Source of the DNA: a virus
Lineage: Duplodnaviria > Heunggongvirae > Uroviricota > Caudoviricetes
Strand: one strand, 5' to 3'
DNA: 18,180 nucleotides
Virus record (IMG/VR): IMGVR_UViG_2526164693_000019
Span: 1 to 18,180 of that record
Of this stretch, positions 6,546-14,881 are shown piece by piece. The notes beneath the pieces are model-generated. The model was not told the origin of the DNA and did no database searches. It worked only from the letters and a program-made list of their open reading frames with translations. The translations under genes were made by a program, and so were the position numbers. How positions within the stretch are numbered: the first letter of the stretch is position 1; each line of letters starts with the position of its first letter.

Positions 6546-7292
6546 ATGAAAAACATTGCGGCAGCCGGGGTTCTTGAACGTATTCGCAGACTTGCACCAC
6601 AGGCGTCGGTTCCACCGTACCGGACGGTGGAGGAGTGGCGGGAATGGCAACTTGCTGAAGGACGAAAACGCAGCGAGGAGATTAACCGCCAGAATCACCA
6701 GTTGCGGGTGGAAAAAATCCTGAATCGTTCGGGCATCCAGCCTCTGCACAGCAAATGCTCGTTTGCGAATTATCAGGTGCAGAACGACGGGCAAAAATAC
6801 GCGCTGAGCCAGGCCAAATCCATAGCTGACGAACTGATGACCGGGTGCACGAATTTTGTGTTCAGCGGTAAAACCGGCACCGGGAAAAATCACCTTGCAG
6901 CGGCGATGGGTAACCGGCTGATGGCGAAGGGGCGCAGCGTGATTATCGTCACCGTGTCTGATGTCATGAGCGTGTTGCATGACAGCTACGACAACGGCAA
7001 ATCCGGGGAAAAATTTTTACAGGAGCTTTGCAGTGTTGATTTGCTGGTCCTGGATGAAATAGGCGTTCAGCGGGAGACGAAAAACGAGCAGGTGGTATTA
7101 CACCAGATAATTGATCGCCGGACAGCATCACTGTGCAGTGTCGGGATGTTAACAAACCTGAATCATGCCGCAATGAGTACACTTCTTGGTGAGAGGATTA
7201 TGGACCGCATGACCATGAACGGTGGTCGATGGGTGACGTTTAACTGGGATAGCTGGCGTCCAAATGTCAGCAATATGAGGGTTGTGAAGTAA
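6546..7292 (+). CDS. DnaC-like AAA+ helicase loader (YdaV/IstB-like), 248 aa
   Basis: Walker A GKTGTGKNHLA and Walker B LLVLDEIG. AGGGGG Shine-Dalgarno; starts 6 nt after the initiator gene's stop. Confidence 0.85.
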   Translation: MKNIAAAGVLERIRRLAPQASVPPYRTVEEWREWQLAEGRKRSEEINRQNHQLRVEKILNRSGIQPLHSKCSFANYQVQNDGQKYALSQAKSIADELMTGCTNFVFSGKTGTGKNHLAAAMGNRLMAKGRSVIIVTVSDVMSVLHDSYDNGKSGEKFLQELCSVDLLVLDEIGVQRETKNEQVVLHQIIDRRTASLCSVGMLTNLNHAAMSTLLGERIMDRMTMNGGRWVTFNWDSWRPNVSNMRVVK

Positions 7293-7313
7293 TTTTGTCC
7301 GGAGGAAATTTTA

Positions 7314-8084
7314 ATGGAAACCGTATCTGACGCACTGAAAGCACTGAAAAAAGCCTCTTCACATGTGGTGGCAGCTCGCCTTGGAATCAGTCGTGAAGAG
7401 GCTGTCAACGAGCTGTGGGAACTCAAAATAAATGGCGTCGTTGATAAAACTGGTCACACCTGGTTTCTGGCTGGCGAAGGTGAATCCCGGGTAACCGAAG
7501 AGCGGCCAGTAAAATCTGAAGCACAGGATATGCTGACCGGGGAGGTCGAACAAAAAGTTACCGCAGACATGATGATTGAGTTTATCGGTCAGGATGGGGC
7601 TAAAACGTGTGAGGAACTGGCGGGTAAGTTCGGTGTCAGTACTCGCAAGGTTGCTTCCACGCTGGCGGTGGTAACCGCAACGGGGCGGCTGGCACGCGTT
7701 AATCAGAACGGTAAATTTCGTTACTGCATGCCGGGCGATAATTTACCAGCAGAGCCGAAAGCCGCGCTGGTAACGGAAAGTGATGGTAAGGCCTTTCCTC
7801 AGCCAGCAGGTGCTGCGTTACCAGTCCGGGAAGCCGCAACACAGGAAGAAATTAAAACAGAAACTGTGGCGGACATTGTGCAGCCGTTGCCATCGTTTAC
7901 CGAAACGCAAGCAGATGAGCTGATTTTTCCGTCCCTTCGCAGGGCAAACCTGGCGCTGCGCAGGGCGAAAAGTGATGTTCAGAAGTGGGAGCGAGTCTGC
8001 GCCGCGCTGCGGGAGCTGAACAAGCACCGGGATATTGTTCGACAGATTTTCGATTCCTCCAGTCGTATTGTGTCGGAAAAGTGA
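7314..8084 (+). CDS. Hypothetical prophage protein (256 aa)
   Basis: GGAGG Shine-Dalgarno (CCGGAGGAAATTTTAATG); long ORF in the same operon orientation. Confidence 0.65.
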   Translation: METVSDALKALKKASSHVVAARLGISREEAVNELWELKINGVVDKTGHTWFLAGEGESRVTEERPVKSEAQDMLTGEVEQKVTADMMIEFIGQDGAKTCEELAGKFGVSTRKVASTLAVVTATGRLARVNQNGKFRYCMPGDNLPAEPKAALVTESDGKAFPQPAGAALPVREAATQEEIKTETVADIVQPLPSFTETQADELIFPSLRRANLALRRAKSDVQKWERVCAALRELNKHRDIVRQIFDSSSRIVSEK

Positions 8085-8099
8085 TTGCCGGAGGCACCT

Positions 8100-8522
8100 A
8101 TGGCAAAAGTATTTACACCAGAAGAGCGGGAAAAAATTAAAGGGCAGGTTGTTGAACTTGTACGTCTGAGCGGTCGCGAGACGTTACGGGCTCTGGAGGC
8201 TAAAACCGGTGCATCAAGGTATTACATAAGCACTCTCGCCAGAGAACTGGTCGCCAGTGGTGATGTTTACAATTCAGGCTACGGATTATTCCCGTCTGAG
8301 CAGGCGCGTAAAGACTGGCAAAACGCCCGCAAAAAACTATCAAGGGCAAAGGTGAAGAAACCGGTTGTGGTTGATCCGGATCTTATCTGGTCATTACCAG
8401 ACGGAGAAATACGCCGCTACGACAGGCGTCTGAACATAATCTGTAGCGAGTGCCGGAAGAGCGAAGCTATGCAGCGTGTACTGGCTTTCTATCAGGGTAA
8501 TTTTCAGAAGGTGCTGTTGTGA
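8100..8522 (+). CDS. Hypothetical prophage protein (140 aa)
   Basis: ATG at 8100 with GGAGG 5 nt upstream; the track's start at 8085 is TTG without a Shine-Dalgarno. Confidence 0.6.
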   Translation: MAKVFTPEEREKIKGQVVELVRLSGRETLRALEAKTGASRYYISTLARELVASGDVYNSGYGLFPSEQARKDWQNARKKLSRAKVKKPVVVDPDLIWSLPDGEIRRYDRRLNIICSECRKSEAMQRVLAFYQGNFQKVLL

Positions 8523-8627
8523 GCCAAATTAACAATCGGAACTTCGTGAAGAGAAAGCATAATCCAAATCTGAATAATTAAGTTCAGCACTGTAAATAAA
8601 ATTTAATCCTTAACTGGAGGTATATTT

Positions 8628-8840
8628 ATGTTAAATACACAGAAAGCCATTAATGCGGAAAAATATAACGAGTGGGCAAGAAAATTCTCTGAGCAGATTT
8701 TTAAAATTACTGGCGATGAGAATGCGGCAAAAAATGAATTAGAACCGTGGACGCCTGAAGGAGCCGACCCAAATTATTGCTGGAGGGAGGTTGATCCAGT
8801 TGATGCTGCAAATGAAGCTATGAGTTATCACAACGATTAA
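8628..8840 (+). CDS. Hypothetical small protein (70 aa)
   Basis: CTGGAGG Shine-Dalgarno upstream; followed by the GC hairpin at 8851-8866. Confidence 0.55.
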   Translation: MLNTQKAINAEKYNEWARKFSEQIFKITGDENAAKNELEPWTPEGADPNYCWREVDPVDAANEAMSYHND

Positions 8841-8850
8841 TGTCAGGAGG

Positions 8851-8866
8851 CCGCCCGAAAGGGCGG
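8851..8866 (+). other. Stable hairpin CCGCCC-GAAA-GGGCGG (GNRA-type tetraloop); possible terminator or RNA stability element
   Basis: Perfect 6-bp GC stem with GAAA loop read directly. No strong downstream U-tract, so terminator function is uncertain. Confidence 0.35.
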
Positions 8867-9091
8867 TAATGAATGGTCACATTATTTAGAAAAAATATCC
8901 GCGAAAGAGTAGAACAACAGAATTTCTGTTTCTCATTCTGTTTATCGTGTTGATGATACCGATATCCCCGTTAATCCTAGTCTGGATAATCGGAAAAATA
9001 ATTGAGCCAGTTATTGAATTGTATAACGACGTGGTATGGGCGTCATTCAACACACTGCACAATAAAATTAATCCGTATAAGGAAAACTGAT

Positions 9092-9355
9092 ATGGCAACT
9101 TTGACAAAAAAAGAACGGGCATGGTTGAACGAATTACAGGAAGTTCTTGATCGCTGTCCATCACCGAAAAAAATTGGCTTTTACACCATTGGCGATAAAA
9201 GCATTTACCTGTATGACCTACGCCGCATGGATGAAATCATGGAGGCTCTTGATAATCGTTCGTCGATGGATTGGTGTGTTGCTGTTCATGATATGAATGC
9301 AGGGTTTGATGAAAAGATTTTGTTCCCCTCATCAGTTGAAAGCACTGCGGGTTAA
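9092..9355 (+). CDS. Hypothetical nin-region-like small protein (87 aa)
   Basis: Internal ATG at 9092 with AAGGAAA Shine-Dalgarno; product MATLTKKERAWLNELQEVLDR... Confidence 0.55.
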   Translation: MATLTKKERAWLNELQEVLDRCPSPKKIGFYTIGDKSIYLYDLRRMDEIMEALDNRSSMDWCVAVHDMNAGFDEKILFPSSVESTAG

Positions 9356-9365
9356 GGAGTAACAC

Positions 9366-9527
9366 ATGACCACTATTACCAAAGAACGTATTGAATTGTT
9401 CATTAAAAATCCGGTTGAAAACGGGCTTACCCGTGGTGAACAAATGGAACTGGCACGGATTGCGCTGGCATCGCTGGAAGCAGAGCCAGTTGGTGATTTT
9501 TATGAATACAAACCGGATGACTGGTAG
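9366..9527 (+). CDS. Hypothetical small protein (53 aa), ends at a TAG
   Basis: TAAGGAG Shine-Dalgarno 6 nt upstream of ATG 9366. Not in the track because it is under 60 aa. Confidence 0.5.
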   Translation: MTTITKERIELFIKNPVENGLTRGEQMELARIALASLEAEPVGDFYEYKPDDW

Positions 9528-9605
9528 CAGCGTTCGGCTGGAGATAAAGCGCCAAAATGGACGCCACCCTATGCCGTTTTTCCAGCGCCCGTAGTGCCGG
9601 AAGAA

Positions 9606-9851
9606 ATGGATTTGCTTACATGCCATCTCGATGGTGTAACTGAAACATATGCTGAGGGATGGAACGCTTGCCGCGCTGCCCTGCTTCAGGGCAAAGGGGA
9701 GCCCGGGAAACAAGTTCGCGAATTGACAATGCTGGTTAAACAATTGGTTAGTCAACTGAAGAAAGCGAAACCGGGCTGCAAATTGCCGGATAAAGTGATG
9801 GACTACCTGGAGCGAAGCGGACTTATAAGCGTGGAGGATGTTTCACGATGA
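9606..9851 (+). CDS. Hypothetical small protein (about 81 aa from ATG 9606; the track uses GTG 9594)
   Basis: Open frame to TGA at 9849-9851; GGAAG upstream of ATG 9606. Same frame as the 9366 ORF. Confidence 0.5.
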   Translation: MDLLTCHLDGVTETYAEGWNACRAALLQGKGEPGKQVRELTMLVKQLVSQLKKAKPGCKLPDKVMDYLERSGLISVEDVSR

Positions 9852-9931
9852 CCTGGCCTGAAGCATTCACAACGGTAGGAATTGCGATGGCGGTGGCGCT
9901 GGTTGTGTATTCGATTTGCCGCTGGGGATAA
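9848..9931 (+). CDS. Putative 27-aa single-pass membrane peptide (MTWPEAFTTVGIAMAVALVVYSICRWG)
   Basis: ATG overlaps the upstream TGA (ATGA) with GGAGG 11 nt upstream; hydrophobic core consistent with one transmembrane helix. Too short to call with confidence. Confidence 0.3.
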   Translation: MTWPEAFTTVGIAMAVALVVYSICRWG

Positions 9932-10241
9932 AAACGATTTGCGGGAAAAGGATAGTTAAGTAGAATTGCTGCGGGTGCTTGAGGCTATCTGCCTTGGGCA
10001 TGAACACCAAAGGCAGATAGAGAAAAACCCACCCGACTATAAATCAAAGTGTATTACCCCCATTTGTTGGACGATGAAATGGGTTTAGTTAACTATGTCG
10101 GTATCGACATGACTAAAACAACCTTAAATTGCTCGATTAATAGACAAGTAGTTTTGAAAGATTAAATTTATGCGATCCGGTATTTTCAAGGGATAGCCTT
10201 TATGAGGTTATCTTATGGGGTTAAAACATCAAGAACAGTTG

Positions 10242-10250
10242 TGTTATAAT
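10242..10250 (+). promoter_or_regulatory. Extended -10 promoter element (TGtTATAAT) upstream of the methyltransferase gene
   Basis: TGn plus a perfect TATAAT at 10245-10250, 32 nt upstream of ATG 10283; weak -35, as is common for extended -10 promoters. Confidence 0.45.
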
Positions 10251-10282
10251 ACATAGAAACTAATAAGAGACGTTGCAACTAT

Positions 10283-11434
10283 ATGAATGTAATAGATTTG
10301 TTTTCTGGCGTTGGAGGTCTAAGTCTTGGTGCTGCACGTGCTGGATTTGATGTTAAAATGGCAGTTGAAATTGATCAACATGCTATTAATACTCACGCAA
10401 TTAATTTTCCAAGAAGTTTGCACGTCCAAGAAGATGTTTCTTTACTAAATGCAGAAATAATTAAGGGTTTTTTTAAAAACGATATGCCCATAGATGGTAT
10501 TATTGGCGGTCCTCCGTGCCAAGGATTTAGTTCAATAGGCAAGGGGAATCCTGATGATAGCAGGAATCAGCTTTACATGCATTTCTACCGTTTAGTATCA
10601 GAATTACAGCCATTATTCTTTTTGGCAGAAAATGTTCCAGGTATTATGCAAGAGAAATATTCTGGCATTAGAAATAAAGCATTTAATTTGGTTAGCGGTG
10701 ATTATGATATTCTTGATCCCATCAAGGTAAAAGCATCTGATTATGGTGCTCCAACTATTCGAACTAGATATTTTTTTATCGGTGTAAAAAAATCATTGAA
10801 GCTTGATATTTCAGATGAAGTATTTATGCCTAAAATGATTGATCCGGTTACTGTAAAAGATGCTTTGTATGGATTACCAGATATTATCGATGCCAATTGG
10901 CAATCAGACTCTGAGAGTTGGCGAACAATTAAAAAAGATCGAAAAGGGGGATTTTATGAAAAATTATGGGGGCAGATCCCTCGGAATGTTGGTGATACAG
11001 AATCGATCGCTAAGTTAAAAAATAATATCATATCTGGATGTACCGGAACATTACATAGCAAAATCGTCCAAGAGCGTTATGCTTCCTTATCTTTTGGGGA
11101 AACTGATAAAATTTCAAGATCTACAAGATTAGATCCAAATGGTTTTTGCCCGACTTTAAGGGCGGGAACCGCTAGAGATAAAGGAAGCTTTCAAGCCGTC
11201 AGGCCGATCCACCCTTATCATCCAAGAGTGATTACACCAAGAGAAGCTGCTAGATTACAAGGCTTCCCTGATTGGTTTCGCTTTCATGTAACTAAATGGC
11301 ATAGTTTCAGACAAATAGGAAATAGCGTGTCACCAATAGTTGCTGAATATATATTAAAGGGGCTGTACAATTTATTAAATAAAAGAGTACAGCCCGAATA
11401 TTTAAACCATAATTCTTTGGAAGTTAGGGTATAA
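10283..11434 (+). CDS. DNA (cytosine-5)-methyltransferase (383 aa)
   Basis: Canonical C5-MTase motifs in order: motif I FSGVGG, motif IV GGPPCQGFS (catalytic Cys in PCQ), motif VI ENVPG, motif VIII-like TIRTRYFF, motif X QIGNSVSP. Strongly AT-rich codon usage compared with the flanking phage genes. Confidence 0.9.
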   Translation: MNVIDLFSGVGGLSLGAARAGFDVKMAVEIDQHAINTHAINFPRSLHVQEDVSLLNAEIIKGFFKNDMPIDGIIGGPPCQGFSSIGKGNPDDSRNQLYMHFYRLVSELQPLFFLAENVPGIMQEKYSGIRNKAFNLVSGDYDILDPIKVKASDYGAPTIRTRYFFIGVKKSLKLDISDEVFMPKMIDPVTVKDALYGLPDIIDANWQSDSESWRTIKKDRKGGFYEKLWGQIPRNVGDTESIAKLKNNIISGCTGTLHSKIVQERYASLSFGETDKISRSTRLDPNGFCPTLRAGTARDKGSFQAVRPIHPYHPRVITPREAARLQGFPDWFRFHVTKWHSFRQIGNSVSPIVAEYILKGLYNLLNKRVQPEYLNHNSLEVRV

Positions 11435-12391
11435 CCTATAGTATTTATAATAGTTATCCCGTTCATTTTCGTTTAAAGAGAACTCTTCAGCGGCTGCCTG
11501 ATATGCTTCTTTATCAGGCAGTTTACTATCTAAATTTATCTTTTCTTTAATTGTTAGTGTTGGTATTGCTATTTCTTGCACGTCTTCCCAATTTGTTGAA
11601 TAAAATTGCCAGTTAGAAAGGTCGCATGCCTTAGATAACTCTATATATTCTTGTTCTGAGGAGAAAAAACCTGATATTGTCAACATGGTATGACTGCCAT
11701 CATTATATTGATTTAAGGATAATGGGTAATACTGAATCTTATCCTTACGTCCTGAAAGACCACGTTCTATTGCTGATCTAAAAGCGTTTGTAATAATTCG
11801 TATTAAAAGAGCTTTAATCTTACGATCTGAAAGATCTGCATTTGATATCTGAAGATTAAAATCAAGATACTTTTTCCCAAGCAATGATTTTAATGAATTA
11901 ATAAAAGCTTCTTTAAAAATATCTAAACTTTCTCCAACTCTACGTTGGTAATAAGAACTAGGATTTATGGGGAAGGTGACCTTCAAAATATCAAAAGAGC
12001 TTACTTTAGTACTTAGTAAGTGTATATCATCTAGATCCGTTTGTATTTTTTTCGGGGAGGCATAGTCTAACCATGTTATTGATGGTTTAGAAAAACTATA
12101 ATCAAGAATAAAGTCATGAGCTGATATTAGCTTACAATCAATACAATTATAAGGCAAATTATATTTTTGTCTGATGTGAGTAGACTCTTGTTCTTCGAGA
12201 GAAATCATATCAGAAAGAGCGATACGATTATGCATGATTCTAAAATCTTCAAGCATCGGACCACCAAAACCTATATATGTATATTCTTGAATATTTAGTC
12301 TTTTGCTTAAGAGGTTTAGGCTTTCGAGAAAAATCTCTCTATCAATAGACTTATTATGCCTTAAGTGATAGGGAATGTATTGTCCAGACAT
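11402..12391 (-). CDS. Unknown-function protein (about 329 aa), translationally coupled partner of the GHKL ATPase; candidate effector
   Basis: ATG (plus 12389-12391) overlaps the GHKL gene's TGA (TGATG) with GAGGTG Shine-Dalgarno; the track's start at 12394 is an in-frame GTG. No motif I can assign; contains a G-x-G-G stretch (YIGFGGPMLEDF). Its 3' end overlaps the convergent MTase gene by 33 bp. Confidence 0.75.
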   Translation of the reverse strand: MSGQYIPYHLRHNKSIDREIFLESLNLLSKRLNIQEYTYIGFGGPMLEDFRIMHNRIALSDMISLEEQESTHIRQKYNLPYNCIDCKLISAHDFILDYSFSKPSITWLDYASPKKIQTDLDDIHLLSTKVSSFDILKVTFPINPSSYYQRRVGESLDIFKEAFINSLKSLLGKKYLDFNLQISNADLSDRKIKALLIRIITNAFRSAIERGLSGRKDKIQYYPLSLNQYNDGSHTMLTISGFFSSEQEYIELSKACDLSNWQFYSTNWEDVQEIAIPTLTIKEKINLDSKLPDKEAYQAAAEEFSLNENERDNYYKYYRLYPNFQRIMV

Positions 12392-13782
12392 CACTTCACC
12401 TCTTCAATCACCGTATCAAAGCATTGCATCCCCACATCAGAAGCGCTAGCATCTTCATGTCCAAAGAAATATTTAGATAAAATTTTAACATCTTCTTTCT
12501 CTCTGGTGAAGATTATTCGTACAGTAGAGCTTTTTTTTACTGGGGTAGGCAGCTTAGGTGTATATCGCCACTCATTTTTGTTTCTATTAGGGTTGGACCA
12601 GTTATTTTTTTTATCTTCTGGAGTTGATTGTGGGGTAATTTCAAATAAAGATTGAGCTTCATGTGACTGAGCTGACTTAAGTAATTTTTTCCCTTCTTCA
12701 AGATGCTCACCTTTCCACTGATTGGTGAATCGAATAAAATGCATCATCCCTTCAATCATTTTATTTCGTACATCATTGTACAATGTAGAACTAAGATCGA
12801 CACCTCGTTTCGTTGTTGTTATTGGTAATTTTTCTGGGTTTTTACTGGTAAAGCGAACAACCCCAGAAATTGCTATAAATTGGGTATGAAACCTTGGTAC
12901 ATTAGCAAAGCCCCAACCTGTGAGATGTGTCTTATCACAATATAGAACAACGCGGTCATTGCAAATGACAGTCCATCCAGCATCATCAGAACTCCTTTTT
13001 TCTAAAACATCATCATTGTCATCTTCTAAATTTTTATAGAAGCCAACAACTAAATCGATATCAACATCGTCTATTTTAGCTTTATATATGTATGGTTCTA
13101 TTTTAGAATGATCAGTTATGATGTTAATCGGATTATGTTCAACAACAACTCCATTTAATTCTATTTTAAATCCTTTTTGAATAATAAATGACAATGAGTG
13201 TTTTATCTGTAAAAAGAGATCAGTAAGATATGTGCTCTCATTAAATTTTTGTGCCACATTAGAATGGAGTTTTTTTATCTCTATAGTTGTGCCTGTTGGA
13301 TTTTTGTTATCATAGTCACTCTCGTGCATCGGTATTTTCCAACCATCACCATCGATCCAATCAGGTGTTATATCTACAGTGAATGCGCCATCGGGATTAT
13401 TCGATTGTATTGAGCAATCTCTACCCATTTTAAAAATGGCTCTTTTCATACCAATACCATAGACGCCAACGGTGCCTTCATTTTCTTCTTCTTTTTGATG
13501 GGGTCGTCCCATTTTAAAAGCATATTCTCGGAAGCTTTTAGGGATACCTCCGCAATTGTCTTCTATAATAAAGACATCTTTATTAATCGTAAGTTTCGCA
13601 TAAAATCCTTCATATGGTTTTGAAGTTTTTTTTGTGTCTTTTATTGTACGTAAAGCCCCATCGACGCAGTTATCAAGCAGATCAAGTATGGCATCGTTTA
13701 AGTCGATATCTCGAGTTAGCATACTTACAAAAAATCTTTTACTAGGACTAAAGTCTGCTGTTGGAGTCGTGTTCTCAGTCAT
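12391..13782 (-). CDS. GHKL/Bergerat-fold ATPase (MORC/MutL/Hsp90-like HATPase), 463 aa
   Basis: Ordered GHKL motifs: N-box LDLLDNCVDGA, G1 box IIEDNCGGI (DxGxG), G2 box GTVGVYGIGMK (GxxGxG), and TGTTIEI. About 290 residues C-terminal to these have no recognisable motif. AT-rich. Confidence 0.85.
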   Translation of the reverse strand: MTENTTPTADFSPSKRFFVSMLTRDIDLNDAILDLLDNCVDGALRTIKDTKKTSKPYEGFYAKLTINKDVFIIEDNCGGIPKSFREYAFKMGRPHQKEEENEGTVGVYGIGMKRAIFKMGRDCSIQSNNPDGAFTVDITPDWIDGDGWKIPMHESDYDNKNPTGTTIEIKKLHSNVAQKFNESTYLTDLFLQIKHSLSFIIQKGFKIELNGVVVEHNPINIITDHSKIEPYIYKAKIDDVDIDLVVGFYKNLEDDNDDVLEKRSSDDAGWTVICNDRVVLYCDKTHLTGWGFANVPRFHTQFIAISGVVRFTSKNPEKLPITTTKRGVDLSSTLYNDVRNKMIEGMMHFIRFTNQWKGEHLEEGKKLLKSAQSHEAQSLFEITPQSTPEDKKNNWSNPNRNKNEWRYTPKLPTPVKKSSTVRIIFTREKEDVKILSKYFFGHEDASASDVGMQCFDTVIEEVK

Positions 13783-13834
13783 AATTTACTCTCTATGTGT
13801 TTGGGAAAATAAATACCTTAAGTGCAAATTGTTG

Positions 13835-13862
13835 ATTTTAAACGCTTCGCATGCGAAGTCAA
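13835..13862 (-). promoter_or_regulatory. Candidate sigma70 promoter of the GHKL operon (TTGACT, 16-bp spacer, TAAAAT on minus strand) with a 14-bp perfect palindrome in the spacer
   Basis: Minus-strand -35 is the complement of plus 13857-13862 and -10 the complement of 13835-13840. Palindrome CTTCGCATGCGAAG at 13845-13858 spans the spacer and -35 edge. About 50 nt upstream of the ATG at 13782. Confidence 0.45.
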
Positions 13863-14281
13863 CGATGTTAAGAAAGAAAGTGCATGTGATCTAACAGTAT
13901 GTTTTTAAAAAAAGATTAGCTTTATGAGAATTCAGGACTGAATCCCGTGAGAGGAAAATAACATATGTTATTGTTGCATTGCTGTGTTGTTTGGGATTTG
14001 TTGCACCATTCTGGCGTTGGTATATCTAGTTCGTTGTTCATTTTGTTAATTGTACAACAGGCAGACAACAGAGAGCTTTTAGCCTAGTTAGCTTACGAAA
14101 TTAAACAACTAAGATTATCGGCGGGGAGTGGTCACCGCTACTCTTTGGCTAGGAGACTTCAACGCAACCGCACACAACCAGCTTCGGCGGGTTTTGTTTT
14201 TTCCTGGCATTCTGGTTTACAATTTGCGTGCTAGCTTGAACAACTGGCATCTGCTGCACTGCGCCATCGAGAGATTGAGAA

Positions 14282-14881
14282 ATGGCGCATATACAACTGG
14301 TCAAACAAACTTCTTCTGGTTTACTTCTCCCGGCGACGCCGGAGAGTTGCGATTTTCTGCATCAAATCAAAATAGGTGAGTGGATACACGCAGATTTTAA
14401 GCGTGTGCGTAACTACGCATTCCACAAGCGTTTTTTCAAACTCCTGCAACTGGGATTCGATTACTGGACTCCGGTCGGTGGGGCGATCACGCCTCGCGAA
14501 CGAGAACTGCTGTCTGGTTTCGTTGATTACCTGTGCGAATCAGTTGGTCGGGAACACACGCCAGCCCTGAGTGATGCCGCAGAGCAATACCTTAACACCG
14601 TTGCGACTCGTAGAACCCGGGATACGGCGTTGCTAAAGTCGTTTGAGGCTTTCCGCGAGTGGGTAACCATTCAGGCCGGATTTTACACCGAGCATATTTA
14701 TCCGGACGGTAGCCGTGGGCGTCGGGCAAAATCCATCGCTTTTGCGAATATGGACGAAGTCGAGTTTCAGCAGGTTTATAAATCTGTACTGAATGTGCTG
14801 TGGAACTGGATTCTGTTCCGTAAATTCTCCTCTCAGGAGGAAGTTGAAAATGTGGCCGCACAACTACTGGAGTTTGCGTAA
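14282..14881 (+). CDS. DUF1367-family protein typical of the Q-proximal region of Stx phages (199 aa)
   Basis: Recalled sequence family found upstream of Q in stx phages; long ORF; stop overlaps the next start (TAATG). Confidence 0.75.
   Translation: MAHIQLVKQTSSGLLLPATPESCDFLHQIKIGEWIHADFKRVRNYAFHKRFFKLLQLGFDYWTPVGGAITPRERELLSGFVDYLCESVGREHTPALSDAAEQYLNTVATRRTRDTALLKSFEAFREWVTIQAGFYTEHIYPDGSRGRRAKSIAFANMDEVEFQQVYKSVLNVLWNWILFRKFSSQEEVENVAAQLLEFA

Follow-up and report, generated by a model that had tools for sequence, protein, structure and literature searches.

A PF20553 protein with a methyltransferase fold, coupled to a MORC-like ATPase and usually linked to a cytosine methylase, in an Stx2-converting prophage and in other genomes

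The window analysed here is the whole 18,180-nucleotide stretch of virus record IMGVR_UViG_2526164693_000019 (positions 1 to 18,180). Positions 11402 to 12391 encode a protein of 329 amino acids (aa) that is a member of Pfam family PF20553 and has a class-I methyltransferase fold. The family is already catalogued, the fold is the commonest one and the protein carries a RefSeq name, so the protein itself is not novel. The interest lies in its module, which locks a MORC-type ATPase of the GHKL class to a putative S-adenosylmethionine (SAM) enzyme, usually together with a cytosine methylase (Dcm) and without a nuclease. As judged from gene order and flanking genes across many genomes, the pair together with Dcm, and sometimes with Vsr, is a widespread and horizontally mobile three-gene module. 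The module resembles the restriction-modification (R-M)-like operons of paraMORC ATPases, with a methyltransferase-fold partner replacing the nuclease or helicase. We are inclined, on balance, to regard the PF20553 protein as the enzymatic output of a Dcm-marked, R-M-like module with a MORC-like ATPase. The genes, their junctions and the codons of the predicted SAM site lie in the window as follows.

10283-11434, plus strand: dcm gene (PF00145, E = 2.6e-61; also matches TIGR00675)
11402-12391, minus strand: PF20553 gene, 329 aa plus stop codon, read from the sequence
12391-13782, minus strand: GHKL ATPase gene, 463 aa, TGA stop at 12393-12391
12389-12402, minus strand: coupling junction, GAGGTG (12402-12397), AAG, TGATG (12393-12389)
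11402-11434: 3' ends of the convergent PF20553 and dcm genes, overlapping by 33 bp
12257-12271, minus strand: codons of G41-F-G-G-P45, glycine-rich motif I, after beta1 (model strand 38-42)
12194-12196, minus strand: codon of E66, end of beta2 (model strand 61-66)
12062-12067, minus strand: codons of D109-Y110, end of beta4 (model strand 104-109), motif IV position

The first-pass annotation, made from the sequence alone, had described the product of this gene as domain-less and potentially of a new fold family. The first description is contradicted by a full-length match to PF20553 (Methyltransf_35, "Putative O-methyltransferase"), in which residues 1-328 align with profile positions 1-308 of 309 at 300.4 bits against a cut-off of 27 (E = 2e-89). 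All 34 of the 34 aligned homologues match PF20553 and no other Pfam family. An AlphaFold2 model built on these 34 homologues (pLDDT 89.4, pTM 0.88) is a Rossmann-like alpha/beta sandwich of seven strands, with a strand order that ends in a beta6-beta7 hairpin. The idea of a new fold did not survive the structural comparison that had been proposed as its check, as the Foldseek neighbours of the model all have a methyltransferase fold, the best match being Trm1 with a query-normalised TM-score of 0.44. The absence of PD-(D/E)xK, HNH, GIY-YIG and PLD signatures from the 329-aa protein, noted earlier by eye, was borne out by Pfam and by the structural comparison. A sequence search of the Protein Data Bank (PDB) with the family profile gave chance-level matches only and found no relative among solved structures. 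The nucleic-acid methyltransferases RsmD/Rv2966c, Trm1, RlmI/RlmO and RlmJ have in common with the protein a Rossmann-like fold of seven strands, a glycine loop after beta1 and an acidic residue that follows beta2. The protein differs from them in sequence, with 5-14% identity, 150-206 of 329 residues superposed and TM-scores of at most 0.44, and we claim no membership in any of these groups.

Conservation within the family was counted over 127 distinct PF20553 homologues of approximately 25-100% identity. A G-x-G-G stretch near the N-terminus, which had been singled out as the only notable feature, proved to be real: it lies directly after predicted strand beta1, G43 is kept in 123 of 127 sequences, and position 41 is G or S in all 127 and position 44 in 125. 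F42, G43, G44 and P45 do not vary in the homologue alignment. This stretch is the predicted SAM-binding glycine loop and points to transfer of a group from SAM, not to cleavage. Position 66 is E in 122 homologues and D in the other 5. In class-I methyltransferases an acidic residue at the end of beta2 binds the SAM ribose, and we take this to be the role of E66 from established knowledge of the fold. The motif IV position, which in class-I methyltransferases carries catalytic or substrate-contacting residues, is occupied by D109 in 126 of 127 homologues, followed by Y or F at 110, again in 126. The (D/N/S)-P-P-(Y/F/W) motif IV of amino-methyltransferases is absent, as the end of beta4 reads W107-L-D109-Y110-A-S-P and contains no PP. 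Outside these sites R18, Y39, R74, W107 and E283 are invariant, and Y8, R11, K14, D49 and D231 are nearly so. This pattern of conservation would fit a working SAM enzyme with a phosphate-rich substrate.

Several parts of the protein are specific to the family, namely a conserved N-terminal YHLRxNK segment, a helical insert of about 70 residues after beta5 and a C-terminal extension of 80 residues. A profile search of 1.84 billion representative sequences recovered 2124 PF20553 members (approximately 2,100 clusters at 50% identity). Among the best 150 of these 2124 representatives no fusion to another domain was found; all are stand-alone proteins of 211-381 aa. NCBIfam holds no model for either the PF20553 protein or the ATPase, and PHROGs places the two in two families of unknown function.

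The protein encoded upstream carries Pfam domain PF13589. Its Bergerat ATP-binding motifs and the lysine of its S5 domain are invariant in 35 homologues, while the last 130 residues contain no invariant acidic or histidine residue in the same set. From these features we classify this protein as a MORC-like GHKL+S5 ATPase without a nuclease domain. Its closest structural relatives are MORC3, SMCHD1 and MORC2. Three viral contigs, L153 (5977-7722), L154 (5965-7686) and L156 (5989-7749), encode distantly related ATPases of 573-586 aa, with about 30% identity. These longer proteins have a Pro/Ala-rich linker and a helical C-terminal domain of about 140 aa without a Pfam match, and they are not followed by a PF20553 gene; the fused domain seems to replace the PF20553 slot. 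The gene order on L154 is Dcm, long ATPase, Vsr and DUF3800.

The two genes of the pair share base 12391, which belongs both to the TGA stop of the ATPase gene and to the ATG (12391-12389) of the PF20553 gene, and a GAGGTG Shine-Dalgarno sequence (12402-12397) lies 5 nt ahead of this ATG. An alternative in-frame GTG start at 12394, 3 nt upstream, would give a 330-aa open reading frame (ORF). The ATG is the likely start, since the RefSeq protein and the homologue alignment (MSGG) begin there. On re-reading, the gene coordinates, the TGATG overlap, the Shine-Dalgarno sequence and the 33-bp overlap with dcm were all found to have been given correctly in the first-pass annotation.

A scan of one genome per species yielded 103 relatives, of which 80 loci were kept. 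The loci span Cyanobacteria, Proteobacteria, Firmicutes, Verrucomicrobia, Chloroflexota, Latescibacterota and others. A GHKL homologue is located directly upstream on the same strand in 80 of 80 loci and is full length in 79. In all 77 scorable loci the GHKL stop and the PF20553 start overlap by 4 or 1 nt or are separated by a few nt, and the earlier suggestion of coupled co-expression is thus upheld, with the ATPase as an obligate partner. A reciprocal test started from the ATPase and found 72 viral contigs in IMG/VR, with PF20553 directly downstream in 69 of them; INPHARED phage genomes gave no megablast match to the module. Dcm is linked to the pair in 68 of the 80 genomic loci and in 71 of the 72 viral contigs. 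It lies upstream and co-directional in 32 loci, downstream and convergent in 26, and downstream and co-directional in 7. The 3' ends overlap by 6 to 50 nt in 15 of the 26 convergent loci, and the tight coupling of the two convergent transcription units remarked on in the window is therefore a recurrent arrangement. As both junctions recur across related loci, neither coupling is a chance feature of the window.

The association with the ATPase is also apparent in the pairwise sequence distances. Pairwise distances of PF20553 and ATPase sequences are correlated with a Mantel rho of 0.48, compared with 0.20 for PF20553 and Dcm, and the PF20553 proteins diverge faster, with a mean identity of 34% versus 45-46% for the ATPase and Dcm. 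When all ORFs of the 80 loci were clustered, the families that recurred were PF20553, GHKL, Dcm and Vsr, with Vsr present in 21 loci. Occasional neighbours are an HNH-like protein, next to the module at 6 of the 80 loci, and a helicase, at one. Beyond Vsr and the HNH-like protein no further conserved gene was found; the 141 immediately flanking ORFs are heterogeneous, and no conserved metabolic genes were found near the 80 loci. The flanking genes include integrases, Tn7-like TniQ/TniB, conjugative coupling proteins, SNF2 and other helicases, NERD and HNH nucleases, and other methylases.

Some individual loci depart from the common layout. In the Rhodoferax locus (L011, 6616-13709) two inverted ATPase-PF20553 pairs surround a single Dcm gene and an HNH-like gene. 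At L080 the HNH-like gene is next to another set of Dcm and Vsr, apparently a Type II system lying alongside the module. A Myxococcota locus (L054, 1746-11501) has the pair without Dcm; the flanking genes encode an SNF2/ResIII helicase and a Helicase_C protein of 1198 aa, a layout similar to that of the MORC-helicase operons in Iyer et al. 2008. Cyanobacterial loci that lack Dcm (L003, L005, L006, L007, L008 and L009) have GFGGH as motif I, not GFGGP. The Nostoc and Scytonema pairs lie stably between NADH-dehydrogenase (ndhF/ndhD-like) genes, and the L007 pair adjoins Tn7-like TniQ/TniB.

Relationships between ATPases of this type and DNA methylation have been described before. Iyer, Abhiman & Aravind (2008, PMC2292703) assigned paraMORC ATPases to R-M operons that also encode DCM, Vsr, helicases and nucleases; the role they proposed for the ATPases is manipulation of DNA between the sites of recognition and cleavage. 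The present module agrees with those operons in its GHKL+S5 ATPase with intact ATP motifs, in its linkage to a cytosine methylase and Vsr and in its sporadic, laterally mobile distribution. It differs in the partner. The paraMORC operons have SF-II helicases and RE-fold or HNH endonucleases, or a nuclease or TIR domain fused to the ATPase, whereas here the invariant partner has a methyltransferase fold, with helicases at 1 locus and HNH at 6 of 80. Bellieny-Rabelo et al. (2021, PMC8011034) described a triad of a C5-methylase, a HATPase_c_3/HEF_HK/HATPase_c protein and Response_reg_2. Both have the same layout of a methylase of the C5-cytosine type, a GHKL protein related to paraMORC and, tightly linked to the latter, a small single-domain partner, but the ATPase of the window lacks HEF_HK (PF19191) and a second HATPase_c, and its partner is PF20553 and not receiver-like. 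Pfam did not find Response_reg_2 (PF19192) in the PF20553 protein.

Of the components of a classical R-M system, the cognate methylase is present in the form of Dcm, and a restriction endonuclease was not found in the pair. The only recurrent nucleases near the 80 loci are Vsr (21/80) and the HNH-like protein (6/80). At E ≤ 1, neither the PF20553 protein nor the ATPase has a match in PADLOC-DB v2.0.0; Dcm alone matches models there, those of generic methylases. Among known defence systems (PADLOC, NCBIfam) only a faint similarity to MzaB was seen (E = 0.037, far below the cut-off), and this candidate was rejected. BREX likewise combines methylation-marked distinction of self and non-self with ATPases and reportedly needs the methyltransferase-fold protein PglX for its defence, an apparently non-degradative exclusion. 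The present module differs in that it has no PglZ, BrxC or BrxL and no PADLOC BREX match, and in that Dcm and the putative output enzyme are separate proteins. In eukaryotes a MORC-type ATPase is likewise tied to DNA methylation, as in plant RNA-directed DNA methylation (PMC8277788). We offer this as an analogy only: eukaryotic MORCs, which act on chromatin, have CW, coiled-coil or hinge domains, and no orthology of the methyltransferase partner is implied.

These comparisons lead us to propose how the module might work. Dcm would mark resident DNA with 5-methylcytosine (m5C), and a dimer of the ATPase would clamp DNA in an ATP-dependent manner, as eukaryotic MORCs do. The clamp would position the PF20553 subunit, made in fixed proportion to the ATPase, and this subunit would pass a group from SAM to nucleic acid, an output that would stand where a classical R-M system has its nuclease. 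We place the PF20553 protein in the output slot because the paraMORC R-M operons and the triads carry other partners there, so that one partner appears to have displaced another. We infer that the enzyme would use SAM and act on DNA, that its action would be gated by the Dcm mark and that foreign DNA would be excluded as a result. In its most specific form, which we regard as doubtful, the ATP-driven clamp would load the transferase onto DNA lacking the Dcm mark, where a blocking or damaging alkylation, or consumption of SAM, would amount to restriction without a nuclease.

Several observations weigh against a role of the PF20553 protein as the output of such a module. We know of no restriction system with a methyltransferase-fold enzyme as its output. 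The D-Y at motif IV is neither (D/N)PP(Y/F) nor an O-methyltransferase metal site, and since it matches no recognised signature the sequence does not reveal the acceptor atom, so that the "O-" of the Pfam name is best taken as provisional. Dcm co-evolves weakly with the pair (rho about 0.2) and is arranged relative to it in at least three ways. In six cyanobacterial loci there is no Dcm within 8 kb of the pair, and these fit a strict R-M logic only if the cognate methylase is encoded elsewhere. Finally, E. coli EDL933 carries the module, and a 2026 study credits its strong resistance to BASEL phages to the systems of OI-172, with no mention of the module (PMC13463889).

Some of the same evidence suits a reading in which the pair restricts nothing and adds a second protective or epigenetic mark to DNA, as part of a modification or anti-restriction cassette. 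The mark might be placed on or beside the m5C made by Dcm, for example as an N4,5-dimethylcytosine-type product. The predicted SAM site is intact and looks like that of a working transferase, the linkage to Dcm and Vsr implies real methylation of the genome, and no nuclease domain occurs in either member of the pair; the module is moreover frequent on phage and prophage contigs, and the cyanobacteria apparently tolerate pairs without Dcm. Ordinary DNA methyltransferases, however, need no ATPase, and the presence of a MORC-type clamp in 80 of 80 loci suggests a gated or processive action. In the window, the opposite transcription of the pair and dcm separates their expression, as in R-M systems, and the module is also found in non-phage islands beside defence-type genes. 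We give a second mark some credence but do not favour it.

It seems unlikely, though the ATPase lends the idea some substance, that the methyltransferase fold serves, like PglX of BREX, as a DNA-reading or SAM-sensing subunit that steers the ATPase to unmethylated DNA, where entrapment or compaction without cleavage would block replication or transcription. The closest relatives of the ATPase are MORC3, SMCHD1 and MORC2, and MORC-1 reportedly entraps and condenses DNA (PMC8277788). Two BREX reports (PMC11842806, PMC11341690) describe a need for the methyltransferase in exclusion without a nuclease, and the pair itself contains none. The near-invariant D109 and the many conserved polar residues suggest catalysis and not binding alone, and no target-recognition domain is recognisable in the PF20553 protein. 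Its faster divergence is compatible with a varying specificity but does not demonstrate one.

A housekeeping O-methyltransferase acting on a small molecule, a protein, rRNA or tRNA, with coincidental neighbours, would accord with the name in Pfam and RefSeq and with the rRNA and tRNA methyltransferases that are its closest solved folds. Such a role is very improbable for a gene that has a sporadic and horizontally mobile distribution, lies on a low-GC island, is invariably linked to an ATPase and frequently to Dcm and Vsr, and has no conserved metabolic genes nearby; the complete module is present in only 172 of 5426 complete E. coli genomes, and the Sakai copy is located in prophage Sp10. The proposal that the protein is a restriction nuclease of new fold draws only on its place as the coupled partner in an R-M-like module and can hardly be right, given the full-length methyltransferase match, a confident model with methyltransferase-fold neighbours only, conserved residues that map to the SAM site and no match to any nuclease family in Pfam, NCBIfam or PADLOC. 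The suggestion of an effector is thus retained in part: the protein remains a candidate as the coupled partner in the output slot of an R-M-like module, but as an enzyme with a methyltransferase fold.

In the literature searched, with most subscription journals outside the search, we found nothing on the function of PF20553/Methyltransf_35 and no description of a bacterial MORC-methyltransferase defence system or of this triad. The locus tags of the Sakai genes appeared in a comparative genomic hybridisation paper and a microarray paper only. If the module excludes foreign DNA, as we prefer to think, methylation-based immunity would gain an output that is not nucleolytic, and the module would offer a tractable bacterial model of how MORC ATPases cooperate with DNA methylation. 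Should it prove to be a nuclease-free restriction machine, it would represent a new effector logic and a prokaryotic forerunner of the MORC-linked silencing by DNA methylation in eukaryotes. If it only adds a second mark to DNA, it would be a new ATP-dependent modification system of Stx phages. Sakai and EDL933, two O157:H7 reference strains, carry the module, and in the window it lies near stx2; it is directly testable in E. coli under either reading and makes a sensible target for experiments.

The window is an Stx2-converting lambdoid prophage, and the module lies about 2.4 kb upstream of stx2. The following further features were located.

10001-14000: low-GC island with the three genes, 31-38% GC versus 42-59% in the flanks
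10221-10250, plus strand: promoter-like site TTAAAA-18 nt-TATAAT with an upstream TG, some 30 nt ahead of the dcm start
13835-13862, minus strand: promoter-like site TTGACT-16 nt-TAAAAT from a consensus scan, about 50 nt upstream of the GHKL start
15862-16111: three tRNA genes, Met-type CAT (tRNA-Ile in RefSeq), one undetermined, and Arg-TCT
approximately 16202-17161: stx2A, downstream of the tRNAs and the antiterminator-region block
17173-17442: stx2B, downstream of the same tRNAs and block

The island lies in the early-right region, between small early genes and a block of DUF1367, DUF1364 and DUF1133 genes, as annotated in E. coli E2863 and in Sakai Sp10, where this region is identical. Transcription of dcm follows the direction of the phage early-right genes, and that of the ATPase-PF20553 operon is opposite. 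The site at 13835-13862 is suggestive, by its position only, as a candidate promoter of this operon; for both promoter-like sites it should be noted that their number in the region is not above chance by the consensus scan. In microarrays of Sakai, ECs1954, the PF20553 gene, and ECs1955, the ATPase gene, changed by -2.61 and -3.22, respectively, on leaving exponential growth and fell in the same cluster (PMC2241611). Their detection in growing Sakai indicates that the operon is expressed in the lysogen.

Of 5426 complete E. coli genomes, 172-176 contain the identical module, each as a single chromosomal copy; in 172 it is near-identical and full length. The carriers include O157:H7 Sakai (prophage Sp10) and EDL933, and the module is always in the same near-identical segment. 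Co-inheritance is close, with dcm in 172 genomes and the pair in 173. All copies are at least 99% identical, which is too little variation for a pattern of decay to be seen. The only partial E. coli module is that of O157:H7 F6294 (NZ_CP038372.1, 2822524-2824283), where the ATPase is kept, dcm is gone and the PF20553 gene has lost its 3' part, about 190 codons; this is compatible with one deletion and uninformative on toxicity.

The module and stx2 are not contiguous, as they are in the window, in any of the 5426 complete E. coli genomes; the best cover is 79% and ends after the tRNAs. In Sakai and E2863 the Sp10-type early region is followed by terB-like genes and not by stx2. Over positions 11400-17450 the window looks like a recombinant in which an early region of Sp10-like type is joined to a late region of Stx2 type. 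The Dcm protein of the window is nearly identical to PDB entry 3g7u ("Cytosine-specific methyltransferase"), with E = 1e-254 over residues 1-367.

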